From a virus: a DNA stretch of 30,012 nt. The stretch's first letter is position 1; the number at the start of each line of letters is the position of its first letter. Below the pieces are notes generated by a model. That model had not been told where the DNA came from. It worked only from the letters and a program-made list of their open reading frames with translations, and did no database searches. Position numbers and translations under genes: made by a program. Of this stretch, positions 56 to 29,957 are shown one piece after another. The stretch lies in UHGV virus genome UHGV-0120925. One strand, 5' to 3'.

Positions 56-121
56 AATTTATTAGAATTTTGCACTTAAATCAAAAAGTTACTGACAATT
101 CAACCACCAATCAATAAATTA

Positions 122-156
122 AAGGGCACATTAAAGTACACAATATTTGTGCCCTT
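122..156. terminator. Hairpin with perfect 9-bp inverted repeat (AAGGGCACA / TGTGCCCTT) and 17-nt loop, downstream of the invertase gene; possibly bidirectional
   Basis: Stem 122..130 pairs with 148..156; T-rich run follows on the plus strand and an AT-rich run on the minus strand. Loop contains GTACACA, the motif repeated next to int. Confidence 0.4.
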
Positions 157-175
157 CTCTGTTTCTTTCCCGTTA

Positions 176-724
176 TCAGCTAGCTGGAAACTTTTTATAC
201 AGAGTTGAGAGCCCTACTCCATACGTTTTTGATACGCTTTGTCGTGATTCACCGGTTGCCATCCGCTCCCCCATTTCCCGCCATTGCTCATCCGTGAACT
301 TAGGCCTGCGACCACCAACTCGCCATTTTGCCCTGGCTACGGCCAGCCCTGCTAAGGTACGTTCGCTATTAAGATCAGATTCATATTGTGCTGCGGAAAG
401 GATGTTACGAAAGTTATAGCGGCCGCTGGCTGTTTTGAGATCCACGCCATCGGTAATACTGCGGAAGTTGATACCCTTTTCCTGTAACTGCTGGAACATC
501 AACAGCGCATGCAGAACGTTGCGGCCTATCCTGTCCAGCTTCCAGACCACCAGTTCATCCCCCGGCTGCATAGTGGTGATCAGCCGCTTCAGTACCGGAC
601 GATTAGATTTTCTCCCGCTTGCATGCTCTTCAAAAATGTGATCACATCCTGATAACTCAAGGGCAGAGCGCTGAAGTTCAGTATCCTGATGGTTTGTAGA
701 TACTCGGGCATAGCCGTAAATCAT
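176..724 (-). CDS. Serine recombinase, DNA invertase of the Hin/Gin/Cin/Pin family
   Basis: Translation from ATG 724 reads MIYGYARVSTNHQD...LVVWKLDRIGR...ERTLAGLAVARA...GVGLSTLYKKFPAS, matching the N-terminal catalytic serine region and C-terminal HTH of Hin/Pin. RBS AGGAGA upstream. The longer track ORF from 769 is an upstream extension. Confidence 0.92.
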   Translation of the reverse strand: MIYGYARVSTNHQDTELQRSALELSGCDHIFEEHASGRKSNRPVLKRLITTMQPGDELVVWKLDRIGRNVLHALLMFQQLQEKGINFRSITDGVDLKTASGRYNFRNILSAAQYESDLNSERTLAGLAVARAKWRVGGRRPKFTDEQWREMGERMATGESRQSVSKTYGVGLSTLYKKFPAS

Positions 725-779
725 GGGATTTCTCCTGTTATGAAAACAGGAGAAACGGCGAAGCATCACCAGATTTTTG

Positions 780-1586
780 ATGGTTATAAAAAAGGTCGGT
801 TTGGGAAGTGCAGCTATTCTTGATTCTGGGGCAGGACTGAATCAGGTGCTTACATCAACGAATGATGGCACTAAAAGTTTTGGGTTAGGAGCAACGTATC
901 CATCTGTCAGCACTAATGGCCAAGTGGCTACAGATTCAACGGGGTTTTACAGACAAAATAATACAACGGGCTCCAATTTCTTTGGGCATTGGGGGGCTGG
1001 GGTTGGGATTATGTATAGCTCCCCAACTAAATTTAATATTTTCGTCAGGCAAGATGGCAAAATTTATTTCAATAAAGTTTCATCTGGATCAGAAGACTGG
1101 AGAGCTATAGCCAAGACAACACTTAACACGACTGTCGATAGCAATGGTTTCCTTAAAACGGCCTCACCCGTCGTTAAGATTTTCAGCAGCGGTAGATGTG
1201 AAACTAATGAAGAATCGGAAGGTTGTACTGTAACTCGCATGAAAACTGGAGAGTATCTGATCGAGGGCTGCATGGGAATGAACTCAGATGCTGCCTGGGG
1301 AGGTGTTGATGGTGGGTTTGTTATCCCTAAAGATCGCAATGGGCAGGCATTAATATGGCTTGACTACGAGGTAAATGCCGACGGGTCAGTGCTCGTGAAA
1401 ACATTCCACCGGGAATACCCGACAGCACCGATATTTGCGAGGAACTCACGGGAAGGTTTAGTAGATGGTGAACCGGCCGATATTCCGGCCGATCAGTTTG
1501 TCAGTGTCCGGGTAGAGATGCCGCAAAACAGTATCTGGAATCAGCGTGTGGCTATGGATGAAGTTCCTGATTTATCCGCTGATTAA
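780..1586 (+). CDS. Alternative tail-fibre C-terminal cassette, silent in this orientation
   Basis: No RBS before ATG 780. Begins VIKKVGLGS, paralleling ARKNLGLGD in the expressed fibre; C-terminus FVSVRVEMPQNSIWNQR parallels SWIDVRLDMPDDSAFNQR. Converges on and overlaps the expressed cassette by 35 bp. Confidence 0.7.
   Translation: MVIKKVGLGSAAILDSGAGLNQVLTSTNDGTKSFGLGATYPSVSTNGQVATDSTGFYRQNNTTGSNFFGHWGAGVGIMYSSPTKFNIFVRQDGKIYFNKVSSGSEDWRAIAKTTLNTTVDSNGFLKTASPVVKIFSSGRCETNEESEGCTVTRMKTGEYLIEGCMGMNSDAAWGGVDGGFVIPKDRNGQALIWLDYEVNADGSVLVKTFHREYPTAPIFARNSREGLVDGEPADIPADQFVSVRVEMPQNSIWNQRVAMDEVPDLSAD
784..809. repeat. Inversion crossover site 1 (hix/gix-like), adjacent to the invertase gene
   Basis: Core AAAAAGG-TC-GGTTTGGGA is an imperfect inverted copy of the site at 2342..2367 (15 of 18 core positions identical). 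Lies at the first codons of the silent cassette. Confidence 0.6.
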
Positions 1587-2829
1587 AGGCAGAATCATCT
1601 GGCATATCCAGGCGAACATCGATCCAACTGTTCACCGGCACGTCCATCGGTTCCCCTTTCGTTTTGACGATCTCCACGCCATCGCTCAGCATGTATTTCT
1701 GTTTAAACAAGCGGATAGTCAGTCCGCAGCTTTCAGTCTGCTCCGCTTCAACAACACCCATCTCGCCCATGCCGCCAGGGTCCATTGGCGGCAGTATCTG
1801 CCATCCCTCAGAAGCCAGGCCTGCCGAACCGGCGAGCACGTAAACACCGACGTCGAGACGAAAAAGAGTTATTCCCTCCGCCTCAGAGTTCGCCGTTCCA
1901 CAGCCACACCAGGAGAAACCATCCTCTGCAACATCAGCGCGTTCCGTTTCTTCCCGGCTTTTGACAATACGGGCCACTGGTGATGCTGCTTTAAGCGTAC
2001 CATCGGAGGATTTTGTTGTATTAGCAGTTGTATATAATTCTGCTGCAGCCCAGGCGTTAGGGTTCGTAGAGTGTCGACATCGGATGATAGCTCTTGGTGA
2101 CTCGGCGTATGCGTTCAAAATAAACTGACCGCCGACTGCCCCGCCACCTTTAATATTTAATCCGACCTGCCACTGACCCGGGAATACTCCTCCGCCGGAA
2201 GAATTCCAGTAACCGAAACCGGTTGTTTCATTGCCTCCCAGCGGAACCACTGTACTCGCACCATTAAGCGTAATACCCAGCCCGAAAGCACCAACTCCCA
2301 TCACATCATTGCTGCCTGCACCTACACTCCTGGTCGCACTGTCTCCTAAACCGAGGTTTTTGCGAGCGTCTTCTGCCTTCGTTGCCCCGGTCCCGCCGTC
2401 AGCGATTGCAAGCGCACCATTGCTCCCTTTCTGCGCAAGTTTACCGATGCCTGGGATGGTTACGGCGGTGCCGTTGATGGTAACTGTGATGCTTTGGTTT
2501 GCTGAGGTGGTGGCGAACGTCTCCCACGCGCCAATATTCTCGTCATACTCCTTGATAAGCTGCGACATGGCCTGCGCCAGCCCATCAACCGAGATATTGT
2601 CTGATACCAGAATGCCGTACTTCTGGCCGCTCAGCGCCGGAGAAGCTGCAGGCGTTACCGTCATTGACGTGGCGCTATTCACGGATGAAATCTGGAACAT
2701 CTGAACCGGGTTAGACATGACAATAATCGTCTGGCCAGCGCGAACCTGGCTGGCCGGTGCAGTCCAGTTTGTACCGGAGCCGGTTGCGGTATTTCCGTTA
2801 ATAGAGATAGTTCCGGTGCTATAAATCAT
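1552..2829 (-). CDS. Side tail-fibre protein: constant N-terminal part (2355..2829) fused to the currently expressed variable cassette
   Basis: RBS TAGGAG before ATG 2829. GGTGATKAEDARKNLGLG motif is typical of phage tail fibres. Crossover site falls in codons KNLGLG. Confidence 0.85.
   Translation of the reverse strand: MIYSTGTISINGNTATGSGTNWTAPASQVRAGQTIIVMSNPVQMFQISSVNSATSMTVTPAASPALSGQKYGILVSDNISVDGLAQAMSQLIKEYDENIGAWETFATTSANQSITVTINGTAVTIPGIGKLAQKGSNGALAIADGGTGATKAEDARKNLGLGDSATRSVGAGSNDVMGVGAFGLGITLNGASTVVPLGGNETTGFGYWNSSGGGVFPGQWQVGLNIKGGGAVGGQFILNAYAESPRAIIRCRHSTNPNAWAAAELYTTANTTKSSDGTLKAASPVARIVKSREETERADVAEDGFSWCGCGTANSEAEGITLFRLDVGVYVLAGSAGLASEGWQILPPMDPGGMGEMGVVEAEQTESCGLTIRLFKQKYMLSDGVEIVKTKGEPMDVPVNSWIDVRLDMPDDSAFNQRINQELHP
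2342..2367. repeat. Inversion crossover site 2 (hix/gix-like) inside the tail-fibre gene
   Basis: TCTCCTAAACC-GA-GGTTTTTGCGAG has a palindromic core AAACC-GA-GGTTT resembling gix/hix sites. Inverted relative to site 1. Confidence 0.65.
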
Positions 2830-3571: not shown

Positions 3572-3598
3572 CCCCCCGCGCTAAGCGTGGTTGTTTTT
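3572..3598. terminator. Rho-independent terminator hairpin shared by the lipoprotein gene (plus) and J (minus)
   Basis: CCGCGC-TAA-GCGTGG stem (one G-U pair) followed by TTGTTTTT on the plus strand; the complement gives a U-rich tail after the J stop. Confidence 0.55.
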
Positions 3599-6500
3599 AT
3601 CCTGAGAATGAACCAGAACCGCGCGACACAATGACGGTCGGTGAATTTATATAAGCCCCCATACTATTTTGAGCGGATACCTTAATTTTAACTGTAACGG
3701 CACTACTGGTTACAGGTGATGAGTGCATTACAAGACGCTCGTTGCCGTCTATAGAAAGTTTTTTTTCTGAACCGTCAATGTTTATCGTGCAGCCACCAAA
3801 ACCTTTAACGTTTGCCATAACGCAGATATGTCTTCTATGTGCTGCACTTGATGTGTCATTGTATGTAATTGTTTTTTCGAGTACGCCATCATTTAACCTG
3901 CTAACGTCAGATCCTGTGTACATATTCGCAACGTCTCCCACAAAACTGGTAGCTTCCACAGTACCCGTGAATTTACCTCTTGTTGCTTGTATCTCACCAG
4001 TAAAGCTACCGCCACTAGCATATACTACACCTCTGACGGTCACATTGTTGAATTCAGCATCTCCAGCTTTATTCAACTTCCAACCAGCAGAACCAGCTGC
4101 ATAGTTGTTGGACTGGATATAGTTGCCGATTTTGGCGTTCTCAATGGTGCCGTCCTGGATGAAGCTGGCCCGGATGAATGTCTGCCCGTTCTGGATCACG
4201 AACGGCAAAGCTACGCCGTTACCGGCAGCTGTCGTGACTGCGAAGCGGTCAGCCAGGAAGATGACCTGTGACTGCATGCCGGACGGCGTATTCTCCACGC
4301 CGATCCCCATCCCTGCGGCGTAATACTGACCATTGCTGGAGACACCAACCTTGATGCTGTACATCGCCTTCAGATCACCGTTAACGTTCGCTATGGCCTC
4401 AGCGTTGGTGGTGATCGCAGAAGTATGTCCATTTACGGTCGCCGTGATGCTGTTTACCTGCGTGGCCATAGCCTGCTGGTAATCCGAAAACGTCTGGTTC
4501 AGGCTGTTGATGGAAGCCTTATTGCCGTTCACGTCAGTCTGCAAACTCAGCAGCGAACGCGCCGTTGCCTCCTTCTCGTTGACGATCACCTCATCAATGC
4601 GGTCCAGCTGCGCGCTGTTACCGGCGACGGATGCAGACAGCGTTTTGCGCGCCGCCACCTGCGCCAGGTTGCCCTGAATAATCGCGATGGCAGAGTTCTT
4701 CACTCCTCCCGTCATACCGTCCACAGACACGCTGATGTTATCGATGCGCTGGCCCAGCGCGGTATCAGCCGTCGCCACTGTCTGCTCAAGCTTGCTCAGA
4801 GAAGAAGACACATCTCCGACCGTGCTCGACAGGTTTGTAACGCTGGTCTGAACCTTCCCGATATCCTGGGCGTTTTTGGCGATATCTTTCGCTTGCTGCT
4901 CCAGCTCGTCGGCATGGTTTTTGATTTCGTCAGCCATGCCAGCAATTTTTTCATTGCTGTCCACTGCGCTCTCAATCAGATCTTTAAACGTATCGGAGTC
5001 TTTAATTTCCTCCAGAATCACATCTGTGATATCGGAAACATCGATGCTGGCCTGTCCTCGCACCCATTCTGTGTACCCTGATTCGTTGCCGCTGCGGTCC
5101 ACCAGCTGCGCGCGGTACCAGAAAATCTGCCCAGCCTTTAATCCCATCTGCTGATATTTACGCTGTGGGTATGGCACATCGGCCAGCAATATCGCATCAC
5201 CATCAGTACCGGTCAGGCTGTACTGAATTTCCGTCTTCAGCGTGTCGTCGGTATTCGCCGGGAATCCCCAGTTCAGCTCGATGCCGAAAACCACATTTTC
5301 AGAAGCGATGAAGCCAACCGGTTTCGGCGGATTGCCCACTTTACCCGTAAGATTTACTTCTGATGATGTCGCCCATACTGATGAAACGTCGCTGGCGTTC
5401 ACCGCCCTGACACGGACCAGATAGCGACCCGAGTAGATACCCTGCACTTCAAAGCCGAGAGAAGACGTTCGGGGCACACTAATCCAGTTGCCGCTGTCAC
5501 GCCGCCATTCCGCCTCGTACGCAACTGCACCCTGAACAGAATCCCAGGCAACGCGCATAGTGGTAATCGCAATGTTCTGGTTAACCGTAGAGTAACTGTC
5601 TACGACAATATTTCCTGGGGGAGCCTGAACCCCCGGTGGAATGACACTGACTGGCCGCTCGTCCAGTCTTGCGCCGGTATCAACAGCGGAATAGATATCA
5701 GGGTTGTAAGTCGTCCCGGTGACCTCGAAAGTACCGTCGTTGTTGTCCCGCGTTCCCGTAACACGGAAAAGCGCTATAAACAGATCGTCAGAGTCCACAC
5801 CCCAGTTACATTCAGCCTCCGGCGTTTCGCTGTAGGGTGTGGTGACAGTGACTGTGTTTCCGTTAACGGCCTGGACGGTTCTGGCCTGAGCTGTGCCTGA
5901 CGGAAGATTCAAAAACAGCCTGTTACCGGCTTTCACATCAGCAGCGCGATCGAGGGTTATGTTGCGGCCGTTAACCGCACTCACCCTGCCGCCGATAGTT
6001 CTTCCGGCCAGCTCGTTAGCAGCCACGCCGATCACCTCACCAACAGGGGGGACGTCCATGCCTGTGCTGAAGGTCACCACCTCGCCGATACCGTTGGTAA
6101 GCAGCGCCCAGCGCCCCCGCCGGTTTGCCTCTGACTGCCTGGTGCAGCCGATCGCAGTCATTTCGAGCTGACGATAATCGAAACGCATGGCCAGATCGCT
6201 ATCGTAAACAGGCTCAGGCGTATCTTTGTAGTGGTTGGCAGGGTCTGACCAGTTCACCAGCGCGGCAGTGTTTCGGGTGGTTTCACTCGGGTCCGCAAAG
6301 GTAAATTTACCCTCAACTACGCTGGCGTGGTTATAGATATGCCACACATCGCGGGGCATATCAGCCAGGACATACATCTTATTGTCACCCCAGTACGTCA
6401 TGCCGCGAAATATACCCGCCAGATCACGAAGTACGGTCCAGGCGTCATTACGGTCCTGGATATAAACGTTGCAACGAAAACGAGGCTCCGTCCCGCTGCC

Positions 6501-7493
6501 GCCCTTGCCGTCTGGTACCAGTTGATCGCAATACTGGGCGATGCGATAAAGTTCCCATTTGTCTATCTGAGTCGCATCGATTCTTTGACCCAGCCCGAAG
6601 CGCTCGTTCAGAATGATGTCGTAATAAATCCAGGCAGGGTTATCCGTCCACGCCCATTTAAATACGCCCTCCCATGTACCAGAATAAGTGCGGGTTTCGG
6701 GATCATAAGTATCAGGTACACGGATGATTCGCCCTTTCGGATTACACACAACCTGAGGAATGCCATTAGGGAACTGCTTTGCGTCAAACTCTACATACAG
6801 CAGCGCTGTGTTAACGTAGCGAAGTTTGGCGTCAATAATTTCAGTAACGGCCACAACGCGCATGGTGTCGACGATATTCACGCTCGTGGAATCCGGTGTG
6901 ATTCTGCGAACCCGCAACTGCCATCCAGTCGAGGCTTTCGGAAGATTGACGCGGTGACTGCGCTCATAAAGCGACGTGGTTTTGTCATCAACAGCACCGT
7001 TAACCACCGTTTCATACGGCCCGCCATCGACCGACAGATCGATAGCATACTCAACGCGGGTGCCGACTTTATCGCCGTTGTTTTTCTGGAGTAAAAGAGT
7101 TGGCCATCCCAGGCGAATTCGCAGCGCAGAGAGCTGCGTGTTGGATACCGCGCGCACGTACGGCACAGCCTGTTTCAGCTCATATGAAACCTGAAGTTCG
7201 TTTTCAATGCCCGGAAAGCCCTGAATGTAATCCTGGTCCTGAGTACCGGAACGGAACTCGTATTTTACATTATTGAAATTGTAACTTCCGTCGGCGTTCT
7301 GGAGAGGCGTGTATGAAGATGAGTCACCAAGGAAAATATTTTTACCATCAAGCCCACCGGCGAACTCCCCCTCCCCAAGAGCAATAAGCACTTTTGCCCT
7401 GGCAATGGACTGAATGCTGTCCGGTGCCTCAACAGGCGTTCGGGTCTGATTGCTGCCACCTTTGCCGCGGCCTTTGATGATTGTCGTCGTCAT
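3597..7493 (-). CDS. J: Central tail fibre / host specificity protein J
   Basis: 1298 aa. Strong similarity to lambda J in the region ...NTALLYVEFDAKQF...YSGTWEGVFKWAW...DKWELYRIAQYCDQLVPDG.... Position after I matches lambda order. Confidence 0.93.
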   Translation of the reverse strand: MTTTIIKGRGKGGSNQTRTPVEAPDSIQSIARAKVLIALGEGEFAGGLDGKNIFLGDSSSYTPLQNADGSYNFNNVKYEFRSGTQDQDYIQGFPGIENELQVSYELKQAVPYVRAVSNTQLSALRIRLGWPTLLLQKNNGDKVGTRVEYAIDLSVDGGPYETVVNGAVDDKTTSLYERSHRVNLPKASTGWQLRVRRITPDSTSVNIVDTMRVVAVTEIIDAKLRYVNTALLYVEFDAKQFPNGIPQVVCNPKGRIIRVPDTYDPETRTYSGTWEGVFKWAWTDNPAWIYYDIILNERFGLGQRIDATQIDKWELYRIAQYCDQLVPDGKGGSGTEPRFRCNVYIQDRNDAWTVLRDLAGIFRGMTYWGDNKMYVLADMPRDVWHIYNHASVVEGKFTFADPSETTRNTAALVNWSDPANHYKDTPEPVYDSDLAMRFDYRQLEMTAIGCTRQSEANRRGRWALLTNGIGEVVTFSTGMDVPPVGEVIGVAANELAGRTIGGRVSAVNGRNITLDRAADVKAGNRLFLNLPSGTAQARTVQAVNGNTVTVTTPYSETPEAECNWGVDSDDLFIALFRVTGTRDNNDGTFEVTGTTYNPDIYSAVDTGARLDERPVSVIPPGVQAPPGNIVVDSYSTVNQNIAITTMRVAWDSVQGAVAYEAEWRRDSGNWISVPRTSSLGFEVQGIYSGRYLVRVRAVNASDVSSVWATSSEVNLTGKVGNPPKPVGFIASENVVFGIELNWGFPANTDDTLKTEIQYSLTGTDGDAILLADVPYPQRKYQQMGLKAGQIFWYRAQLVDRSGNESGYTEWVRGQASIDVSDITDVILEEIKDSDTFKDLIESAVDSNEKIAGMADEIKNHADELEQQAKDIAKNAQDIGKVQTSVTNLSSTVGDVSSSLSKLEQTVATADTALGQRIDNISVSVDGMTGGVKNSAIAIIQGNLAQVAARKTLSASVAGNSAQLDRIDEVIVNEKEATARSLLSLQTDVNGNKASINSLNQTFSDYQQAMATQVNSITATVNGHTSAITTNAEAIANVNGDLKAMYSIKVGVSSNGQYYAAGMGIGVENTPSGMQSQVIFLADRFAVTTAAGNGVALPFVIQNGQTFIRASFIQDGTIENAKIGNYIQSNNYAAGSAGWKLNKAGDAEFNNVTVRGVVYASGGSFTGEIQATRGKFTGTVEATSFVGDVANMYTGSDVSRLNDGVLEKTITYNDTSSAAHRRHICVMANVKGFGGCTINIDGSEKKLSIDGNERLVMHSSPVTSSAVTVKIKVSAQNSMGAYINSPTVIVSRGSGSFSG

Positions 7494-7503
7494 ATCGCGT
7501 CCA

Positions 7504-7528
7504 TAAAAAAAGCCACCGTTAGGTGGCT
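7504..7528 (-). terminator. Strong intrinsic terminator between I and J
   Basis: On the minus strand AGCCACC-UAAC-GGUGGCU is followed by six U residues, ending 10 nt before the J start codon. Confidence 0.55.
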
Positions 7529-7546
7529 TACAGTGGGTGGTTTGGT

Positions 7547-8131
7547 TTATTGCTGATCTTCTGCATATATCCCGGCGGAGATAATAGCGCCGCCTATTTC
7601 TCGCTGACCATAAAGCAGGGGAACGGGATTACCGGAAGCTGTCGTATTAACGGGTCCACCAAACGCATAGGAAGGTTTGTTATCAGGATCTTGCCGCATT
7701 CGCAGACCTGAGACCTGAGGAGAGAGCATTTGCACTACACCGCCAACGGCCATCGCGGCACCTACGGAAAACATTAGGTTACTTGCTGCAATACTAACTC
7801 CTGGCATCCATATGGCCGCAGCCACCAAAGCCGTTCCGAGCAATGCCTGGAAAACTCCCGCTCTTTTGCTTCCCCTTATTACAGGGATTATTCTCAGTTC
7901 ATCCCCTGGGCCCAGGAGCTCAAACTCTTCGTGTCCGATATTGCGGCGATCCCGGAAAATAACAAAATCCAGTCCCTTTGCCCGAGCTTCACGCAGATAA
8001 GCATCAAAGCCGTCAATGGTGTTAGAAAGCGCCCTGAACACTTCGCTGGCAGACGTTAGTGCGCGGCGATGTGTCCTGCCAAATCGCTGAGCCATTGAAC
8101 CACTGAGTTTAATGACGGTTTTTCTTTCCAT
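7547..8131 (-). CDS. I: Tail assembly protein I
   Basis: Position after K with a 1-nt stop/start overlap at 8131. Gly/Ala-rich hydrophobic C-terminal half typical of lambda gpI. Confidence 0.8.
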   Translation of the reverse strand: MERKTVIKLSGSMAQRFGRTHRRALTSASEVFRALSNTIDGFDAYLREARAKGLDFVIFRDRRNIGHEEFELLGPGDELRIIPVIRGSKRAGVFQALLGTALVAAAIWMPGVSIAASNLMFSVGAAMAVGGVVQMLSPQVSGLRMRQDPDNKPSYAFGGPVNTTASGNPVPLLYGQREIGGAIISAGIYAEDQQ

Positions 8132-8841
8132 TACATCAAATCCTTATAGCGCAGAATTTTGATGGTACGGTCACGATAATAGCCACCGTATGGAATACGC
8201 TGACTTAGCTGGCCATACATGTGGTGAAGGAGCACATTACCCTCAAGCAAAATACCCGCGTGGTTTGGGACTGCGGACTGTACCTGCATGATCACCATGT
8301 CACCTGGCTGGGAAGGCCCGTCGAACTCCCTGAATCCACACTCATACCAGTTGTCCATGTAGAGGTTTTCGCCCTGCTCCCACCAGTGACGATCCACGCT
8401 GTAATTCGGTAACGTAATACCGTGCTCAGTACGGAAGTAATCCATGATGAGAGACCAGCAGTCGGCGTGACCGAGCACAAACTGGCGACCAGTTAACGGG
8501 CGATCACCACGAGGCATGACGGTACGAATATCCCCTTCAGGCCAGGATGCAATTACCCATGGCAATTCAGTGGCATCGCACATCAGCATGTCGAGTTCAC
8601 TGGGCTGGGTTGTCGCGCCGTCACCAGGATGGCTGTGCACGATAGCAACTACTGTGCCCTGCTCTTCAGCCGCTGCATAATCTTCAGGAGACAATTCAAA
8701 CTGCTCAGTCGGGGATTCAGCCTGATTTCTGCAAGGGATGTATTTCTCTACTCGCCCCTTCTGTATGACAACGCCACAGCATTCGTCTGGACACGATGCG
8801 GCCGCGTGCGCCAGAATGGCGCTAACTGTTTTGTCGCGCAT
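8131..8841 (-). CDS. K: Tail assembly protein K (JAB/MPN plus NlpC/P60-like)
   Basis: HSHP metal-binding motif and Cys/His residues typical of lambda gpK. RBS GAGAGG. Position between L and I. Confidence 0.88.
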   Translation of the reverse strand: MRDKTVSAILAHAAASCPDECCGVVIQKGRVEKYIPCRNQAESPTEQFELSPEDYAAAEEQGTVVAIVHSHPGDGATTQPSELDMLMCDATELPWVIASWPEGDIRTVMPRGDRPLTGRQFVLGHADCWSLIMDYFRTEHGITLPNYSVDRHWWEQGENLYMDNWYECGFREFDGPSQPGDMVIMQVQSAVPNHAGILLEGNVLLHHMYGQLSQRIPYGGYYRDRTIKILRYKDLM

Positions 8842-8843
8842 GA

Positions 8844-9602: not shown

Positions 9603-9937
9603 GGATGGTATGCCTGTATGAATGTGCTGCTGAGGGTGTATTTTTTGTTGCCGTGGGTAGATATCTGGAAGGATTCCGCGCGCCATAAACATGAAGGCTC
9701 AAGCGGCGGCTTCCAGATAAATGACTTCCACCCGGCATGTCTGTTGAGAAAGTTTTTAATGGCCTGAATGTAAGCCTCGTCACCGGTAAAGCTCACGCTC
9801 CACTGAGGTGTTACCGGGTTGATACCGTCTCCGGCCACCTGCGCATAGCCATCGCCAAACTGTGCCTTTCGGGTACGAAAATTTGTATCAACCTGAGAGG
9901 CAACCTTTGGGCACCAGCTGAAGGTTTCGACTGCCAT
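9599..9937 (-). CDS. M: Minor tail protein M
   Basis: Similar to lambda M (FGDGY.Q, GGWKSF.W.PP). Start at ATG 9937 with RBS AGGGGG, directly after the tape-measure stop. Confidence 0.85.
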   Translation of the reverse strand: MAVETFSWCPKVASQVDTNFRTRKAQFGDGYAQVAGDGINPVTPQWSVSFTGDEAYIQAIKNFLNRHAGWKSFIWKPPLEPSCLWRAESFQISTHGNKKYTLSSTFIQAYHP

Positions 9938-9939
9938 GG

Positions 9940-13206: not shown

Positions 13207-13236
13207 AAAAAAACCCGCTTGATAGCGGGTCGTGAG
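13207..13236 (-). terminator. Intrinsic terminator immediately upstream of the tape-measure start
   Basis: On the minus strand ACCCGC-UAUCAA-GCGGGU is followed by seven U residues and then the ATG of the tape-measure gene. Confidence 0.55.
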
Positions 13237-13761: not shown

Positions 13762-13769
13762 CAGAAACT

Positions 13770-17576: not shown

Positions 17577-17589
17577 AATTAACTCCTGA

Positions 17590-19644: not shown

Positions 19645-19654
19645 AACTGCCTCT

Positions 19655-21412: not shown

Positions 21413-21909
21413 CAGTCCCTCGAATTAAGAAATTGACTTAACAGATCATCATCGTCTGGTTTGTCTTTACTGACCTTAGACCTGCTGGAAGGCGTCATAC
21501 CAAACTCCGCTAACATCGCGCGAAGTCGCTTCCAGGCATCAGCTTTCATCATGGCTGCCGGATGCGGCTTGATCATGCGTATTTCACGCTCTTTCCCTTC
21601 ATCAGCATCATCATCGCTGTATACCGCATAGGTATAACCTTCCCGATCCAGCGTTTCACAATGATGGCGGTATTCCGTATATGCCTCTACCAGCAACTCC
21701 AGAGCCCTGGCATCCAGCTGAGATATGACGCCAATGGCATCAAGTTCTTCGGCCATCCGCTTAAACCAGTACTTCCCCTGCTTGTCGAAATGCTTGGGAA
21801 CTGGGGGGACCCCTTTAGGTGGCTGCGGCTCGTTTTTGTTGATTGGTCGTTTGGAAGGGTTACCCCTCACCAAACGCAGATGGGTAGGGGTTTTCGGCGG
21901 TCCTGACAT
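21412..21909 (-). CDS. Terminase small subunit (P27 family)
   Basis: RBS AGGAG before ATG 21909. 165 aa with a basic N-terminus and acidic C-terminus. First gene of the minus-strand late operon. Confidence 0.82.
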   Translation of the reverse strand: MSGPPKTPTHLRLVRGNPSKRPINKNEPQPPKGVPPVPKHFDKQGKYWFKRMAEELDAIGVISQLDARALELLVEAYTEYRHHCETLDREGYTYAVYSDDDADEGKEREIRMIKPHPAAMMKADAWKRLRAMLAEFGMTPSSRSKVSKDKPDDDDLLSQFLNSRD

Positions 21910-22443
21910 AATCGAAAACTCCTATTAATCATCGGCTGTGGGACCCCAAAAAAAGTTTTCTAACCTGCGGCGATGTGAAGAAAGGCTAGGCGGCGGTCCT
22001 TTTGGCGCCCGGTTACAGGGATTTGACCTCCCCCTCCCCTCCACATCCGTTGATGGTAATCATTATCATTTGAAGCGTTCACGCCCTGTTTTCGAGCGGT
22101 GGCAAGGCCAGCACAGGCTTTCAAGGTTCGAATCATCATCGGTACACGTAAACGTGCTGTATCACCGGGTGCGATCCGGTCGGTGAGAGAGTATCCCCGC
22201 GCGAGAGCGAGAACGGCGTGAGAACGGGCAACACTGGCAGGGAGTTGGCGCTGACCAATACAGGGAATGTTATGGGATGTGGTGAAGGGTTCATGGACGG
22301 GAATATGTCGCACGTAAAGCGGCGAGGCCCGAGGAGCTATTGCCGAAGATAAGTAGGCCGAATCGGGTCGAAATGGGTCTCCCACCTACCACAGCACCAA
22401 AGCATTTCTCCCGCATCAGCGGGTAACTAAGTGGAGAGTAAGT
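21910..22443. promoter_or_regulatory. Non-coding divergent control region between the late (minus) and early-left (plus) operons; likely holds promoters and the packaging site
   Basis: About 530 bp with no RBS-supported ORF. GC-rich, with short direct repeats (GAGAACGG twice at 22207..22226). Exact promoter and cos/pac positions cannot be fixed from sequence alone. Confidence 0.4.
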
Positions 22444-22632
22444 ATGCACAAGTGTCAATTCTGTGGGTACTTTCTGGCATCTGAAGAGATGCAGAGAATA
22501 TCTGTAAACATGGTTGGCAGGCCTTACAACATCTGCATTCCATGCTCAGAAAAGTACAAAAAGAAAGGCCTGTGGGATTCGGCAAAAAACGATATCGACT
22601 GGAAAGCACTTCCATGCGTCGATGAGACATAA
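22444..22632 (+). CDS. Small zinc-ribbon protein (CxxC...CxxC), unknown function
   Basis: RBS GGAGAG. 62 aa with Cys pairs at residues 4/7 and 31/34. First gene of the plus-strand early operon. Confidence 0.6.
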   Translation: MHKCQFCGYFLASEEMQRISVNMVGRPYNICIPCSEKYKKKGLWDSAKNDIDWKALPCVDET

Positions 22633-22665: not shown

Positions 22666-22962
22666 ATGATCGACGACATCAAGCGCATCGACTCAATGAT
22701 AAATGCGCTTCGCAATATGAAACAGGACATCAAGCGTCAGCAGAAACTAAGTGAAATAAACAGTTTAGACCTGTCGCCGAAGCAAGCTCAAAAGCGCAAT
22801 GCCGATGCTGACTGGATTGCGATGGAACAGATTAAGCGTCGGCATGAGCTGCACGCTCTGTCTGTTGAGCTTGGGTTCGCTGAGCGCCGGGAAAGTTATG
22901 CTCCATTTGAATTAACTGACGGGTGGCACCGATTCGACCACAAGCCGCGCGAACCTCAATAG
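22666..22962 (+). CDS. Hypothetical protein (98 aa)
   Basis: RBS AAGGGG. Preceded at fixed spacing by the repeated 17-nt motif. Terminator follows. Confidence 0.55.
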   Translation: MIDDIKRIDSMINALRNMKQDIKRQQKLSEINSLDLSPKQAQKRNADADWIAMEQIKRRHELHALSVELGFAERRESYAPFELTDGWHRFDHKPREPQ

Positions 22963-23118: not shown

Positions 23119-23325
23119 ATGGTAAACCAGCACTACGGTACACAGACAGTAAACCGCGGCGCAGTTCAGCCGGGGATGCTCGTCAAACACAAGGATTCAA
23201 CCTGGACGGCATCAGCTAATGCTCGTGGTCGTTTGTATCTGCATCGCGGCGTTGAGATGACTTACACCAGGGATTTGCTGGTTGAAGTTTATCTGAACGG
23301 TCTGGGGAATGGCCTCAGCCATTAA
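23119..23325 (+). CDS. Hypothetical protein (68 aa)
   Basis: RBS AGAGGA before the ATG. No recognisable family. Confidence 0.45.
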   Translation: MVNQHYGTQTVNRGAVQPGMLVKHKDSTWTASANARGRLYLHRGVEMTYTRDLLVEVYLNGLGNGLSH

Positions 23326-23358
23326 CGGAGAGTTGCCAAAACACTTTAAGGACAGGTG

Positions 23359-23517
23359 ATGAAAAAAGAATGTGGTTATTGCCACAAGCCTGTTGAAGAA
23401 GGCGCAGAAGTAAAGAGCACCTTGCTCTATCTCAACGGTTCGCAACTGGCACAGAAAGAAAAAGAATATTGCTCTAAGCAATGCGCTGAATACGACCAGA
23501 TGGCGCACGAAAGTTAA
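23359..23517 (+). CDS. Small zinc-ribbon protein (52 aa), found by hand because it is below the ORF-track cutoff
   Basis: RBS AAGGACAGG before ATG 23359. MKKECGYCHKP...YCSKQCAEY has CxxC and CxxxC pairs. Confidence 0.45.
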   Translation: MKKECGYCHKPVEEGAEVKSTLLYLNGSQLAQKEKEYCSKQCAEYDQMAHES

Positions 23518-23602
23518 ATAGCAGTCCTGAAATATGAAATGAAAAATTCGCCATTAATTTGGCGCGGCTTCTTACACCCTTAATTTAACAACTGGAGATT
23601 TT

Positions 23603-23890
23603 ATGGAAATCGTAAAAATCGAAATGAACCTGAAAGCAGTGAATAAAGAAGTGGCTGCATTCAACTGCGAGAAGAAAGTATCAGGCGTTATTCACTCAAC
23701 TACAAACGGTGAAACAACAGTCATTCTCGACGGTGGCTATGTGCTTGGCAAGTTTGATTGCCCGCACTGCGCCATTGAGGAGATCAGCTTGCTGGTACTC
23801 AAAATCAGCGATAGCGATTACGCCGGCTGGGGAACCTACCGTACATACAAGCAAGATTTTATGAATGAGGCGATCGTAGCCGTCAGTTAA
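23603..23890 (+). CDS. Hypothetical protein (95 aa) with CxxC pair
   Basis: RBS GGAG before the ATG. Followed by hairpin GCCCAC-CGAA-GTGGGC (23897..23912) without a U tract. Confidence 0.5.
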   Translation: MEIVKIEMNLKAVNKEVAAFNCEKKVSGVIHSTTNGETTVILDGGYVLGKFDCPHCAIEEISLLVLKISDSDYAGWGTYRTYKQDFMNEAIVAVS

Positions 23891-24030: not shown

Positions 24031-26937
24031 ATGGAATTCTTTAATGTGGTTAAAGCCACTCAGAAATCCGGAAAGCAAGATGCAGTGGTCTGGTTCACTG
24101 CTAAAACCGAGGCTCGCGCCAATCTGATGCTGGATGTTGCGCTGGAAGATGCAGGTATCGAAACAGGTCGGGGTAAGGACTACGCCAAACCGATTCGCAC
24201 TGATTTCCCAGTTGTCGACGGCCTGCCGAAAGAAGGTGAAGTTGATTTTACCTGGTGTGATCGCTACGAGCTTCATGACGATGGGCGCACCTGGCTGCCA
24301 AAAGTCACAGCTGAAAACTCTGACGAGAAAACGGCTCAGACCGTTGATAGTCACATAACTACTGAGTCAACGCTGTCAGAAACCGCTGGCATCACGCTGG
24401 ACGAACACGACGACGACTCAACCCTCTACCCGGTAGTGCAGATGCCGTTTCGTAAGCAACTGCTTTCCCAGTTCACCGCCGACGAACTGCGCCACCACGT
24501 AACCCATGAAGAGTACGAAGCTATCGGCGCGCTGGAGATGGACACTGATAACAGTTACGTCCAGAACTTGCTGTTAGCTGCTGAGAACTGCCCGGAAGTG
24601 AAGGGTTACGACACCAAAGACCTGTGGCGTTACACCGATGCCATTCGCAAAGTGTTCAGCCAGGACAAGCGTCACGAACTCGCGCTGGTACTCCGTTTCA
24701 CCAGAATGTGGGCGGCGACTGATTACATTGACCGTGGCATCCTGGCGCGTGAATGGGCCGCCGGTAATCGCATCAGTAGTGTGCAGCGTACTGATTCCGG
24801 CACTAATGCCGACGGCGGTTACGTCACTGACCGTGGACCTGAGGCACACCACACACTGGACACTCTCGATTTAGAGATTGCGTGTGCCCTTCTGCCTATG
24901 GACTTCAACCACTTCGAGATCCCGGGCAGCATTCTTCGTCGCGCTAAAGAAATCGTGACCAAAAAAGAAGAACCATGGAAATCATGGAGCAACATCCTGC
25001 GCAATCAGCCAGGCGTTCTGGGTGTTAACCGCACGGCTATTTTTAACCTGGTACGTATCGCACCGGAAAATATTCATTTAACTCCTGTCGCTCACCTGGA
25101 ATTTGTTAACCAGACCATGACAGCCGCGTTCAATTCCGCGGTCGAGTTATTGCCGTTGCATGAAGCTGAACCCGCAGCACAGGAAATTCCCCAACCTGAA
25201 GGTAAGGAGTCTCCGCGCAAATCCTTCTGCACTCACGAAGAGAACCTGCAACGCGTGCGTGAAGAAGGAGCACGCCGCCGCGCAGAGGAAGCGGCAGCAC
25301 AACCGCAGAAAGTCGAACAAGAACTGGTTAAAAATGTCGGCAACGGAATATTCGACGTTACGGCTTTGCTGCAGAACTCAGCAACTCATGGCACGAAAAA
25401 GGCTACGGAGACCACCAGCAATGTGCAGGTTCAAGAAACTGTCAGTGATGAAAAACAAGCTGGTGATGAAGTACAGCCAGGCGAAAGCAGTCTGGAGTCT
25501 GGTGAAGAGTCAGATACCAGCCAGAAGGACGATGTAGACCAGAATACGGATTCTGTCGCCAAAAATAGCGATTCTGTAAGCCAAACCGAACCAGTTGCAA
25601 CACAAACCGAGCCAGAAGCGCAATCTGACGAACCAGCTGTTGTTTATCCCGCTTATTTCGAGCCAGGCCGCTATGAAGGGCTGCCAAACGAGGTTTACCA
25701 CGCCGCCAACGGCATCAGCTCAACCCAGGTGAAAGATGCGCGCGTTTCGCTGATGTACTTCAATGCGCGCCACGTAGAGAAAACCATCGTCAAAGAGCGC
25801 TCAGCGGTGCTGGACATGGGCAACTTGGTGCATGCGCTGGCGTTGCAGCCTGAACTACTGGACGCAGAATTCAGCGTTGAACCGGTGATCCCTGAAGGCG
25901 CATTCACAACGGCCGCGACCCTGCGCGCCTTTATCGATGAGCACAATGCCAGCCTGCCGGCGCTGCTGTCTGCCGACGACATCAAGGTGTTACTGGAAGA
26001 GTACAACGCCACCCTGCCGCCGCAGGTTCCGCTTGGCGCTAACCTGGAAGAAACGGCACAGAACTATATGGCGCTGCCAGCTGACTTCCAGCGTATTGAT
26101 GGTGACCAGAAGCAGACGGCGACGGCAATGAAGGCATGCATTAAAGAGTACAACGCCACCCTGCCGCCGCCGGTTAAAACCAGCGGCAGCCGTGACGCGC
26201 TGCTGGAGCAGTTGGCAATCATCAACCCTGACCTTGTGGCTCAGGAAGCACAGAAACCGGCACCACTGAAAGTGTCCGGTACCAAAGCAGACATGATCCA
26301 GGCCGTGAAGGCAGTCAAACCAGATGCCGTATTTGCCGACGAACTGCTGGATGCCTGGCGCGATAACCCGGAAGGAAAAGTGCTGGTCACCCGCCAGCAG
26401 CTGAGCACCGCGCTGAATATTCAAAAAGCGCTTCTGGCACACCCGACCGCCGGCATGCTGCTGACCCACCCTAGCCGAGCCGTTGAGGTGAGCTACTTTG
26501 GTTTTGACGAGGAGACGGGCTTGGAAGTTCGTGTGCGCCCTGACCTTGAGATCGACCTGGATGGCGTGCGTATAGGTGCAGACCTGAAAACCATCAGCAT
26601 GTGGAATGTTAAGCAGGAAAGCCTGCGCGCCAGGCTACACCGGGAAATTATTGAACGTGATTATCACCTGAGCGCGGCTATGTACTGCGAAACCGCAGCG
26701 CTGGATCAGTTCTTCTGGATTTTCGTCAACAAAGACGAGAACTACCACTGGATCGCCATCATCGAGGCATCCGCTGAACTACTGGAGCTGGGTATGCTCG
26801 AGTACCGCAAAGCGATGCGCAATATCGCAACCGGATTCGACACAGGTGAATGGCCAGCGCCAATCACTGCTGACTACACCGACGAACTGAACGACTTCGA
26901 CCTGCGCCGCCTTGAAGCGCTGCGTACTCAGGCATAA
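24031..26937 (+). CDS. recE: RecE-like exonuclease VIII (C-terminal PD-(D/E)XK nuclease domain) with long N-terminal extension
   Basis: 968 aa immediately upstream of recT. C-terminal region ...YFEPGRYEGLPNEVYHAANGISSTQ...DLEIDLDGVRIGADLKT... is consistent with a RecE/YqaJ-type nuclease. Central acidic low-complexity stretch. Confidence 0.8.
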   Translation: MEFFNVVKATQKSGKQDAVVWFTAKTEARANLMLDVALEDAGIETGRGKDYAKPIRTDFPVVDGLPKEGEVDFTWCDRYELHDDGRTWLPKVTAENSDEKTAQTVDSHITTESTLSETAGITLDEHDDDSTLYPVVQMPFRKQLLSQFTADELRHHVTHEEYEAIGALEMDTDNSYVQNLLLAAENCPEVKGYDTKDLWRYTDAIRKVFSQDKRHELALVLRFTRMWAATDYIDRGILAREWAAGNRISSVQRTDSGTNADGGYVTDRGPEAHHTLDTLDLEIACALLPMDFNHFEIPGSILRRAKEIVTKKEEPWKSWSNILRNQPGVLGVNRTAIFNLVRIAPENIHLTPVAHLEFVNQTMTAAFNSAVELLPLHEAEPAAQEIPQPEGKESPRKSFCTHEENLQRVREEGARRRAEEAAAQPQKVEQELVKNVGNGIFDVTALLQNSATHGTKKATETTSNVQVQETVSDEKQAGDEVQPGESSLESGEESDTSQKDDVDQNTDSVAKNSDSVSQTEPVATQTEPEAQSDEPAVVYPAYFEPGRYEGLPNEVYHAANGISSTQVKDARVSLMYFNARHVEKTIVKERSAVLDMGNLVHALALQPELLDAEFSVEPVIPEGAFTTAATLRAFIDEHNASLPALLSADDIKVLLEEYNATLPPQVPLGANLEETAQNYMALPADFQRIDGDQKQTATAMKACIKEYNATLPPPVKTSGSRDALLEQLAIINPDLVAQEAQKPAPLKVSGTKADMIQAVKAVKPDAVFADELLDAWRDNPEGKVLVTRQQLSTALNIQKALLAHPTAGMLLTHPSRAVEVSYFGFDEETGLEVRVRPDLEIDLDGVRIGADLKTISMWNVKQESLRARLHREIIERDYHLSAAMYCETAALDQFFWIFVNKDENYHWIAIIEASAELLELGMLEYRKAMRNIATGFDTGEWPAPITADYTDELNDFDLRRLEALRTQA

Positions 26938-26942
26938 GGGGA

Positions 26943-28061
26943 ATGATGATGGAAAACACGAATATCGTAACCGCTGAACAGCAGACTCCAAACACGATCT
27001 CAGCCAGCAATGCCATTTTCAACGTGCAGGCTTTAACCCAGCTTCAGTCTGTCGCCGGGTTGATGGCACAGGCAGCCGTAACGGTGCCTGAGCACCTCCG
27101 CGGCAATCCGGCAGACTGCATGGCCATCATCATGCAGGCGATGCAGTGGGGTATGAACCCTTACGCCGTGGCGCAAAAGACGCACCTGGTTAACGGTGTC
27201 CTGGGATACGAAGCGCAACTGGTTAATGCGGTGATCTCCAGCTCAAACGCCATCGTTGGCCGCTTTCACTATGAGTACGAGGGCGACTGGTCGAAATGTG
27301 CCAGCAGCCGCGAGATAACCGTTAAAAAGCCTGCGAAAGGTGGCGGGACGTACGACAAGAAAGAAATGGTACGCGGTTGGGAAAGTGCTGATGAACAAGG
27401 ACTGTCGGTACGGGTAGGTGCCGTTATTCGCGGTGAAAGTGATATCACCTGGGGAGAGCCTGTTTTACTCTCCAGCGTAATCACACGTAATTCTCCACTT
27501 TGGGTATCAAACCCGAAACAGCAGATCGCTTATCTGGCACTCAAATACTGGGCGCGCCTATATTGCCCTGCAGTTGTTCTTGGTGTGTACACCCCTGATG
27601 AGATTGAACAGCGCACAGAAAAAGAGATCAACCCAACGCCGCAACGCGTTAGCCTGGCTGATATCTCAGGTGACACCGTCACAACCACGCAAAGCGCACA
27701 GGAATCGTCGGTAAATGTCGACTCTCTTGCCGATGATTTCCGCGAACGCATCGAATCTGCTCAGGACGTGGATAGCACCAAATCGCTGCGTGCCGACATT
27801 GAAACGGCGAAAGCTACGCTGGGATCCGCACTATTCACCGAGCTGAAAAACAAAGCCGTAAAGCGTTATTACCTAGTGGATGCACGCAACAAGGTTGAGG
27901 AGGCTATTAAATCCCTGCCCCAGCCCGACGAGCCGCATGCAGCCGAACGGTTCGCTGAAGCCGAGCGCATGCTTACATCTTCAAAGCGTCACTTAGGCGA
28001 TGAACTGCACGATCAATTCAGCATCACCCTGGCGGATATGAAACCGGAATACGTGGCCTGA
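26943..28061 (+). CDS. recT: RecT single-strand annealing recombinase
   Basis: RBS AAGGGG. Region ...CMAIIMQAMQWGMNPYAVAQKTHLVNGVLGYEAQ... matches the RecT family. Paired with the upstream RecE-like gene. Confidence 0.9.
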   Translation: MMMENTNIVTAEQQTPNTISASNAIFNVQALTQLQSVAGLMAQAAVTVPEHLRGNPADCMAIIMQAMQWGMNPYAVAQKTHLVNGVLGYEAQLVNAVISSSNAIVGRFHYEYEGDWSKCASSREITVKKPAKGGGTYDKKEMVRGWESADEQGLSVRVGAVIRGESDITWGEPVLLSSVITRNSPLWVSNPKQQIAYLALKYWARLYCPAVVLGVYTPDEIEQRTEKEINPTPQRVSLADISGDTVTTTQSAQESSVNVDSLADDFRERIESAQDVDSTKSLRADIETAKATLGSALFTELKNKAVKRYYLVDARNKVEEAIKSLPQPDEPHAAERFAEAERMLTSSKRHLGDELHDQFSITLADMKPEYVA

Positions 28062-28099: not shown

Positions 28100-28342
28100 A
28101 TGCGACTGATCAATCGAGGAAGTAAGCAATCACCTTTAGCTCGCCAAGCATGCGACATCGCGCTGGCAGCTCACTTGCAAACATATGGCGACTATGGGCG
28201 AAGCAAGATGAAAGAGACTTATACGGTGAAGGTTGAAGGCGTGAAAGTCTGGGTGGAGGTGGTGAACCGAAAGGCGAGCTACGTGGCCACAGCGATGACC
28301 GGCATGCGCCGTCTCCGCTCCCTGCCCGGGCAGGTTGGTTGA
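28100..28342 (+). CDS. Hypothetical protein (80 aa)
   Basis: RBS AAGGAG before ATG 28100. Preceded by the stable hairpin GGGAGGG-GTAA-CCCTCCC (28069..28086). Confidence 0.5.
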   Translation: MRLINRGSKQSPLARQACDIALAAHLQTYGDYGRSKMKETYTVKVEGVKVWVEVVNRKASYVATAMTGMRRLRSLPGQVG

Positions 28343-28383
28343 AAAAGATTTTGAATGGCCCGAACGGGCAACTGGAGAGAGCT

Positions 28384-28581
28384 ATGGATGATATTTTGGT
28401 AACGTCAGACCTGACCAGTCGCTACAAAATTTCACGCAAAACCCTTTGGTCATGGCAAAGTGCAGACACAATGCCTCGGGGCTTCGTATGCCCGTTCCCA
28501 CCCCCTGACTGGCCCGGCAACCCTAACCGCTGGCGCTCTGAGTCAATCAAAGAGTGGGAGGATAAAAAGAAGATAAATTAA
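28384..28581 (+). CDS. xis: Excisionase / AlpA-like DNA-binding protein
   Basis: Start at ATG 28384 with RBS GGAGAG; the track ORF from 28339 begins with TTG. Pattern ...[12 protein letters not shown]...PRGFVCPFP... fits the AlpA/Xis winged-helix family. Converges on the int 3' end. Confidence 0.6.
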
Positions 28582-29771
28582 CTGAAGGGCTCTCCGATGA
28601 TCTCTTCAAGATGGCTCTGCCAAACGCGGAGCCAGTGTTTCTGATCATCGATATAGTCATGAAGGTTGTAATGCGCCATAACCCCCACCATCTGATGCCC
28701 GAGCAGCTTTTCAATTACGTGCGGCGGGCAACCTAACTCAGAGAGATTTGTGGCTATCGTCCGCCTCATATCATGAAGCGACCACTCTGCCATACCTGTT
28801 CCATTCCAAATAGAACGGGCGTAATTGGATGCCACAGGTGAATGAACGGGCGAATCTTTGATCCCGCCATCAATTTTACGTTGTGAAGTCACCAGGTGAT
28901 TGGTGTTTATTTTCTTGAGGTGATTTCTGACCAGGTTAACGGCGGCGTCTGAGAGTCCCCTTCTAATATGTACCCGAGTTTTATAACTGCCCGCAGGCAC
29001 GACCCACTCATTATCATCCAATCGAAACCATGATCTCTCACTAAGTCGAATCTCAGCCGTACGGCATCCGGTAAGCATAATAAATTTCACCAGGAAAACG
29101 GACTCTATCGACATATGGCTTTTCAACCACTGATAGATTTTGCGCAGATCGTCATCGTCCATCCTGCGAGTTCTCTTTTTAGGCTTTTGCCCGACATCAG
29201 ATGGCAGTAATCCCTCGAGTGGGTTTGAGGCGATCACACTTCTGTTAACGCAGAACCTAAACGCCCGTTTGCACAGCGAAAGCATGTAATGAGCCATCAC
29301 CCTGCTTTCTATAGAATCGAAGACGTTGATCCAGTGCATTTTCGCTGTGTTATCGACTTTGACATTCTTCATCGGTTCGGCGATATGTTTCTCAAACACC
29401 TGGCGATAGTAATCGACTTTAACTAGCCCGTTAGCGATACAGTGCCTTTCAATCCAGTAATTGAACGCTTCGGCAACGGACATCGCTTCCTGTCGGGTCT
29501 GCTTATCCAGCTTCACCTGCTCTCGCGGATCCAGTCCCTCAGTTAACCAGTTTCTGAATTGTTGGCGACGCTCTCTTGCCTGGGTGATACTCATTGCAGG
29601 ATAATCACCAACATTGAGTTTTACCGCTTTACCGGCCCAGCGATACCGATAGAAAAATGATATTTTTCCGGCCTGGCTGATTCTGGCGTTGAGCCCGTGC
29701 GAATCAGAAATAATCTCGATATCATCTCTTTTCTTGCCGAGCGCCTTCCTGAGCTTTGTGTCGGTGATCAT
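28578..29771 (-). CDS. int: Tyrosine site-specific integrase
   Basis: C-terminal catalytic region with R...HDMRRT...H...Y residues ([30 protein letters not shown]). Start set at ATG 29771 ([10 protein letters not shown]), typical of P4-type integrase N-termini; upstream in-frame codons run through the GTACACA repeats and are probably untranslated. Confidence 0.88.
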
Positions 29772-29776
29772 TGAAT

Positions 29777-29817
29777 GGGTACACATTTTTGTTTTTGGGT
29801 ACACAAAAGTGTACACA
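29777..29817. repeat. Three direct repeats of G(G/T)GTACACA just upstream of the integrase start; candidate arm-type or operator sites
   Basis: GGGTACACA at 29777..29785 and 29797..29805, GTGTACACA at 29809..29817 (contains the palindrome GTGTACAC). A single GTACACA also sits in the left-end hairpin loop at 136..142. Confidence 0.4.
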
Positions 29818-29957
29818 AAGTTGCCCACTCAAAGCTACACGCAATGTAACACTAGTTCGCAGAGTGTTATGGTTTACATCCTTGAAAGCCTGCTGGATAA
29901 GGGTTTAGCGTAACAGAACGTTTTTACGCGGAATTGTTCGTAATATGCCAAATGACA

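Follow-up and report, generated by a model that had tools for sequence, protein, structure and literature searches.

A lambdoid prophage of Escherichia coli very likely crippled by a single internal deletion of about 12 kb

The virus genome UHGV-0120925 (a stretch of 30,012 nucleotides, referred to here as the window) contains an integrated element for which a first-pass annotation, made from the letters alone, described full morphogenesis and recombination modules but no visible immunity, replication, antiterminator, or lysis genes. It was proposed that the element is either a deletion-derived defective prophage or one that depends on a helper or on host factors for induction and release. Our analysis supports the former proposal, on the grounds of collinearity with the intact ES5 prophage, 11.65 kb of that relative with no match in the window, a truncated HNH endonuclease gene, a cut nutL site, and a 3-bp microhomology at the junction. 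With its HK97-type head and terminase, lambda-type tail, and phi80/Rac-type early-left arm, the element is a lambdoid prophage, and very likely (with a probability of roughly 0.9) one that was crippled by a single internal deletion of about 12 kb and persists as a defective remnant.

Comparison with intact relatives locates the deletion at positions 22143–22145. The intact ES5 prophage (NZ_CM184343.1, 949–991 kb) is 42.1 kb long, lies at the same yciI/kch attachment site, and encodes an identical integrase. Window positions 14185–22145 correspond to 21236–29198 of the ES5 locus (L001) at 96% identity, and positions 22633–30012 correspond to 40849–48240 of that locus at 98.7% identity; between these two aligned blocks lie 11,650 bp in ES5 and 487 bp in the window. 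The ES5 block carries the HNH gene, three lysis genes, Q, the nin genes, P, O, a YdaT/cII-like gene, cro, and a LexA-family cI gene. The two elements share a collinear structural module (mostly 92–100% protein identity, with 64% for the tape measure) and the N-kil-ydaE-recE-recT-DUF4060 arm (98.7% DNA identity), but the 11.65 kb are present only in ES5, which also has a different type of pL/immunity segment and differs at the end of the tail fibre, in the tape measure, and at the C-terminus of the tail tube.

The 487 bp at the corresponding place in the window are not foreign DNA, as positions 22143–23114 are 99–100% identical to phage phi80 (JX871397) and to the G3/10 prophage, which also resides at kch. 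This similarity runs from the nutL core through N, whose protein is identical, to the tL1 region, and it starts exactly at the annotated nutL core of phi80, downstream of the three OL operators, pL, and the nutL boxA. In contrast to phi80 and G3/10, the window is devoid of pL, the OL operators, boxA, cI, and everything to the right of them; none of the three OL operators, pL, or boxA of phi80 was found anywhere in the window. The junction reads ...ATCATCGG-TAC-ACGTAAACGTG..., and the TAC is common to both parents, which is the signature of illegitimate recombination at a microhomology. The HNH gene is truncated and nutL is split at this point, so that the element shows what is expected of a deletion prophage, namely collinearity with an intact relative except for an internal block and a junction that truncates a gene or site. 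Where an identical TerS occurs elsewhere, an intact 116-amino-acid (aa) HNH gene adjoins it in all 10 of the contexts inspected, and recognisable lysis genes lie upstream in at least nine of these.

The functions encoded in the missing block were sought throughout the window. Forty proteins from the HNH-lysis-Q-nin-O/P-cro-cI region of ES5, G3/10, and phi80, covering early, immunity, replication, Q, and lysis functions, were used as tblastn queries, and matches were confined to the N protein and the C-terminal 25 residues of HNH. Pfam and PHROGs scans of the 122 unassigned open reading frames (ORFs) of at least 50 aa gave nothing relevant, and the assigned genes belong only to structural, recombination, and integration families, among the families listed (25 of 36 in one Pfam scan). 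For the immunity region, which comprises a cI-type repressor, Cro, and the operators OL/pL and OR/pR, tblastn and hidden Markov model (HMM) scans detected no homologue in the window, and no phi80-type operator with fewer than four mismatches is present in the whole window, the best matches having four to six. Likewise, tblastn and the ORF scans of the window recovered neither O/P-type replication genes with an origin nor the Q antiterminator with pR' or a holin-endolysin-spanin cassette. The first-pass statement that no repressor or Cro, O/P-type genes, Q, holin, or endolysin can be recognised is thus borne out by the 40-protein tblastn search and the ORF scans, and HMM searches over the ORFs of the window revealed no repressor, lysis, or replication homologues among the small ones. 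The statement that an antiterminator is lacking is correct for Q but not for N, as a 98-aa ORF is 100% identical to phi80 N. Overall, the element lacks what defines a functional lambdoid temperate phage.

The boundaries of the element bear directly on whether these genes could simply lie elsewhere. A 17-bp direct repeat, ATTTAAGAAAGTGTTCT, occurs in exact copies at 39–55 and 29958–29974. Positions 1–57 are the 3' end of E. coli yciI, and when the flanks outside both attachment (att) copies are joined, a 93-nucleotide empty site at the 3' end of yciI is reconstructed. Of 5426 complete E. coli genomes, 5272 have at least 80% of these 93 nucleotides together at a single locus, and the best hits are 100% identical. 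On a metagenome contig identical to the right part of the window, kch directly follows the element. Because of the att repeats, the common empty site, and the adjoining kch gene, the boundaries are correct and the host is E. coli, in which the prophage, 29,919 bp long, occupies the yciI/kch attachment site. It has the integrase and the att direct repeats expected of a functional lambdoid prophage, and its insertion site is unoccupied in other strains. The first-pass boundaries of 56–29957 hold on the evidence of the repeats and the empty-site test, and the prophage does not run on beyond the window, which the first-pass annotation had named as a circumstance that would overturn its conclusion.

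It might still be supposed that the prophage is intact but split, or that it extends further, with its regulatory, replication, and lysis genes at another place, as the evidence is limited to the 30-kb window and about 0.9 kb of flank. However, the att repeats bound the element, the joined flanks recreate the common empty yciI-kch site, kch directly follows on the identical contig, and in every relative examined the missing genes sit between HNH and nutL, that is, inside the element. Such a split is therefore hard to credit.

The junction itself is rare. Megablast of positions 22000–22800 against the 5,426 complete E. coli genomes yielded only matches that start at the junction and none that crosses it. 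A 26-nucleotide junction pattern had no match among GTDB species representatives (one genome per species), and a 23-nucleotide pattern had none among JGI metagenome contigs; a shorter pattern of 18 nucleotides gave two matches in GTDB, both in metagenome-assembled genomes of Acidobacteria and evidently due to chance. Window positions 20031–30012 are 100% identical to the MEGAHIT-style ENA metagenome contig ERZ27229574 k119_107796, and no more than three to four contigs (JGI/IMG, Logan, and ENA) carry the exact RecE, tape-measure, and J proteins. The junction is thus confined to a handful of assemblies that share identical proteins. This rarity, together with the intact state of the remaining genes and flanks that are 99–100% identical to intact relatives, indicates that the deletion is recent and restricted to one lineage.

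Identity with a contig of MEGAHIT style would lead one to ask whether an assembler joined parts of one intact prophage or of two different ones, the more so as the right flank resembles another prophage lineage (G3/10 and phi80) than the left flank does. We consider this extremely unlikely. The 3 bp common to both sides of the junction are far too short for joining in a k-mer graph, and the exact RecE is present on four contigs whose neighbouring genes are similar enough to collapse to one place, while the identical proteins are recorded from three sources. Moreover, mosaics in the early region are normal in lambdoid phages, and the segment past the junction is collinear with ES5 as far as att and kch.

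The other proposal of the first-pass annotation, dependence on a helper or on the host, deserves closer attention. A co-resident or superinfecting lambdoid phage might supply induction, replication, late-gene activation, HNH, and lysis to an element that retains an intact cohesive-end site (cos), terS, terL, int, xis, and both att copies. Phages of matching packaging specificity would be plentiful, as the identical TerS is very common in enterobacterial prophages, with 2636 blocks of the collection listing it. However, the cis-acting targets OL/pL, boxA, and pR'/qut are deleted, which would leave the N or Q protein of a helper without a target, and an origin and replication genes are absent as well. 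The junction cuts a gene and a nut site and looks like damage rather than design, and the arrangement occurs in one small set of assemblies with identical proteins, without any sign of conservation. In addition, at 29.9 kb the element has only 71–75% of the length of related genomes (about 71% for ES5 and about 75% for HK97), which is less than cos phages usually need for packaging, judging from lambda.

Nor was any satellite-type regulator, replication, interference, or helper-hijacking gene found. Phage satellites (PICI, cf-PICI, and P4-like elements) carry their own switch, a primase or rep gene with an origin, and genes for interference with the helper; no such family was seen in any ORF, among the families listed and with the PADLOC defence library not searched. 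The recurrent architecture of satellites is also lacking, the junction being absent from the E. coli, GTDB, and JGI sets. The traits of a tailocin or gene transfer agent, namely vertical inheritance within a host lineage, expression under host control, and a lytic release function, are likewise not seen in an element that is known from one small set of assemblies and has no lysis genes and no recognisable promoter. Helper dependence is thus unsupported, given the lack of satellite-type genes, the deletion of the cis sites on which a helper would act, and a junction that does not recur, and it is a very unlikely account of the element.

The history that fits a deletion-derived remnant best would be as follows. 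While the prophage was integrated, one illegitimate-recombination event would have joined a TAC in the 3' part of the HNH gene to a TAC just upstream of the nutL core. The same event would have removed OL/pL with boxA, cI, cro, the cII-like gene, O/P with the origin, and the nin region, and with them Q and pR', the holin-endolysin-spanin cassette, and most of HNH. With the SOS-sensing repressor and the early promoter gone, N, kil, recET, and xis would be left without a promoter, and with the late promoter and Q gone, the same would apply to the 22-kb morphogenesis operon. Replication, lysis, and HNH-assisted cos cleavage would be lost too, HNH genes being known to adjoin cos and the terminase genes (PMC3592412), and the HNH protein of HK97, gp74, being described in PMC9410871, which cites Kala et al. 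2014, as promoting cos cleavage. The resulting element would be unable to sense SOS, to excise efficiently, to replicate, to express virions, to cut cos, or to lyse its host.

Such a deletion would be tolerated because pL and pR were lost together with cI, so that kil and in-situ replication, the lethal early functions, could not be derepressed. The remaining genes would be intact because the deletion is recent, and a single recent deletion would also account for an undamaged full virion module. As for promoters that might drive the remaining operons, the sole minus-strand gene upstream of terS is the distant int, and sigma-70-like matches around the junction number 4 against 2.5 expected, which is no more frequent than in shuffled sequence.

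Several points weigh against this history. No exact parent with both flanks has been identified, which makes the size of the deletion an estimate (about 11.7 kb by ES5 and about 12 kb by G3/10), and the right flank is mosaic, being phi80/G3-10-like up to 23114 and ES5-like thereafter. The silence of the remaining operons is deduced from the missing promoters, and weak internal promoters are possible. Finally, it is formally conceivable that the missing 12 kb were relocated by a rearrangement instead of lost, the evidence covering the window and its flanks. The features of the element are listed in Table 1.

Table 1. Features of the prophage in the window, with coordinates, strand, and basis of assignment.
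Feature	Coordinates	Strand	Basis and remarks
att core copy, yciI side	39..55		17-bp exact direct repeat; overlaps 3' end of yciI
Pin/Gin-type serine invertase	179..724	-	Pfam Resolvase and HTH_7; 95% identical to ES5 recombinase over 182 aa
Side tail fibre region	729..2829	- and +	Two Phage_tail_C_2 domains on opposite strands; fibre gene 1552-2829 (-), alternative C-terminus 777-1586 (+)
Lambda-type tail: J, I, K, L, M, tape measure, YebO-like small ORF, T, G, tail tube	3597..14605	-	Full-length ES5 alignment; Pfam
gp17 tail completion, HK97 gp10-like, head closure, gp6-like connector, 70-aa ORF (head-tail joining)	14664..16330	-	Full-length ES5 matches, 92-99%; Pfam
Major capsid protein (HK97-fold), S78 prohead protease, portal, 61-aa ORF, TerL, TerS (P27-family)	16368..21909	-	Full length, 98-100% identical to ES5; Pfam
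Retained cos region	21910..22065	-	99.2% identical to ES5
HNH endonuclease 3' remnant	22066..22145	-	80 bp (77 coding bases and stop); last 25 codons and part of the next
Deletion junction	22143..22145		3-bp microhomology TAC; ES5-type sequence ends at 22145, phi80/G3-10-type begins at 22143
phi80-type leftward-operon leader	22145..22443	+	Begins at nutL core CACGTAAACGTG (22145-22156); 99.3% identical to phi80
62-aa C4 zinc-ribbon-like ORF, function unassigned	22444..22632	+	phrog_19863; usual first gene of such pL operons
N antiterminator, phi80 type	22666..22962	+	98 aa, 100% identical to phi80 N; PF26859 Phage_N_antitermin
tL1A-like terminator	22961-22979		Terminator-like hairpin after N
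Kil/KilR cell-division inhibitor, 68 aa	23119-23325	+	phrog_294 Kil
YdaE, 53 aa	23356-23517	+	NF041288
95-aa ORF, function unassigned	23603-23890	+	phrog_2434
RecE exonuclease VIII (968 aa) and RecT (372-aa ORF; ES5 RecT 370 aa)	24031..28061	+	Pfam Exonuc_VIII and RecT; 97.6% and 98.9% identical to ES5
DUF4060 protein and excisionase, last leftward-operon genes	28100..28581	+	PF13269; phrog_1553, E = 1.4e-33
Tyrosine integrase, convergent with xis	28578..29771	-	Arm-DNA-bind_3 and Phage_integrase
att core copy, kch side	29958..29974		Repeat and empty-site test; kch follows on identical metagenome contig

The first-pass description of the region between terS and recE was largely accurate: terS ends at 21909, the RecE-like gene starts at 24031, and the five small ORFs between them (62, 98, 68, 53, and 95 aa) are all on the plus strand. 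The gap of about 530 bp that had been described as non-coding indeed holds no gene in its 534 bp (21910–22443). However, it is not featureless, as it contains the cos region, the HNH remnant, the junction, and the nutL leader. By tblastn, residues 92–116 of the 116-residue ES5 HNH protein match positions 22143–22069 with 100% identity.

A cos-end-like core, GGACCGCCGCC, lies at about 21975–22000, and the reverse strand of the cos region can be aligned with the right-hand end of linear HK97 DNA, ...GACCGCCGCCAAA, via the motif GACCGCCGCC. This alignment with the ends of the HK97 genome served to place cos, as phage isolates whose ends are defined gave matches of only 77–85%. The element thus shares with HK97 the gene order HNH-cos-terS-terL, the HK97-family head genes, and the cos-end motif, but here HNH consists of its last 25 codons only. 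Globally aligned, TerS and HK97 gp1 (165-aa and 161-aa proteins) agree at 25 residues, an identity of only about 15%.

None of the five small ORFs was matched in the local Pfam copy, and they were named from newer Pfam models precomputed for identical proteins, PHROGs, and NCBIfam; for N, no named function is given in PHROGs or NCBIfam. The family support for Kil, YdaE, and the 95-aa ORF (phrog_294, PF27398, NF041288, and phrog_2434) is listed jointly for 23119..23890. The 62-aa gene that precedes N is present in the window and in G3/10, but not in phi80. In other contexts of this gene, a cI-type repressor gene lies upstream in all 10, and a small ORF in the N position (64–145 aa) lies just downstream in nine, the tenth locus ending too early. 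A 17-bp direct repeat, CCGCATCAGCGGGTAAC, is located at 22411–22427 and 22633–22649 and comprises a short hairpin followed by a ribosome-binding region. Relative to phi80, which has one copy of the repeat and no ORF, the 62-aa ORF is a 205-bp insert flanked by the two copies, and CCGCATCAGCGGGTAAC looks like a gene-cassette boundary sequence that may have been used in mosaic exchange. An Rfam match to isrB, an Hfq-binding small RNA (RF01386; 23892–23989, minus strand; 38.2 bits against a gathering threshold of 35, E = 0.0013), lies in the gap that separates the 95-aa ORF from recE and is antisense to the leftward operon. Farther along this arm, the excisionase gene occupies 28339–28581, and the integrase is 100% identical over 397 aa to that of ES5 and G3/10 (WP_000627155.1).

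The head, tail, and terminase module is complete, as expected of a functional lambdoid prophage, and the morphogenesis operon runs uninterrupted along the minus strand between 21909 and 3597. All proteins of the ES5 morphogenesis module align over their full length without interruption, with the exception of the tail tube, which has 147 aa here and 234 aa in ES5. The short form was considered as a second lesion and rejected, being a natural variant that is full-length in the deposited phage genomes AsXd-1, SaltyDalty, and LAU1. A supposed nonsense mutation in the DUF6453 ORF (2907–3164) was likewise rejected, as the RefSeq start codon is non-canonical and the frame is open in both sequences. 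The tape measure (9940–13206) is only 64% identical to that of ES5 (L001 16255–19719), from which it also differs by being shorter by 66 aa. As the tail genes on either side are 92–100% identical, this is a local mosaic replacement within the tail module.

At the fibre end, a 14-nucleotide inverted repeat (729–742 and 1905–1918) adjoins the invertase gene, and the C-terminal segment of the tail fibre is probably invertible, forming a host-range switch of the Pin/Gin type. Compared with ES5, a separate tail-fibre assembly gene is absent from this element. Two small genes should also be mentioned. One, a moron-like insertion in the tail operon, is an 81-aa YebO-like ORF (13237–13482, minus strand; PF13974, E = 8e-9) between the tape-measure and T chaperone genes, at a position where ES5 has an unrelated plus-strand ORF. 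The other, downstream of J but on the other strand, encodes a 76-aa predicted lipoprotein (3335–3565, plus strand; phrog_12984) with 100% identity to the ES5 version; this may be a Cor-like exclusion gene, which its own promoter could still express.

Rac, DLP12, and e14 exemplify the class to which the element belongs, that of cryptic lambdoid prophages. Like the cryptic prophages of E. coli K-12 (Rac, DLP12, e14, and Qin), it is a grounded lambdoid remnant that arose from deletion. Rac also has recE, recT, kilR, and ydaE, and e14 has the Pin invertase and an invertible tail-fibre segment. The K-12 elements have lost most of their virion genes, whereas here nothing is missing from the virion module and the loss is limited to the central block for control, replication, and lysis, which points to one recent event and not to long decay. 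Incomplete prophages have been found to lose replication, packaging, and release genes preferentially (PMC7744054).

The intact chromosomal cos, the common TerS/TerL specificity, RecET, and the undamaged virion genes raise the idea that the remnant could serve as a landing pad, in that a related phage cuts the in-situ cos or rescues tail and host-range genes by recombination; we regard this as quite unlikely. If it were true, a superinfecting or co-resident phage with the same HNH and terminase might package leftward the 22 kb of virion genes and the adjacent yciI-tonB-trp region. Packaging from an in-situ cos has its likeness in the 'doc' particles of lambda in the older literature.

Finally, it should be noted that this kind of decay is already known, only the undamaged full virion module being unusual, and the significance beyond annotation is small. 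For annotation itself, the element may be instructive: prophage-calling pipelines would score it as 'intact' from its structural gene content, despite its having no regulatory, replication, or lysis genes, and the N antiterminator and Kil are easily overlooked among the small ORFs, the local Pfam search having missed both. Within the lambdoid family, it provides a clean example of how one microhomology-mediated deletion turns a complete prophage into a grounded remnant.

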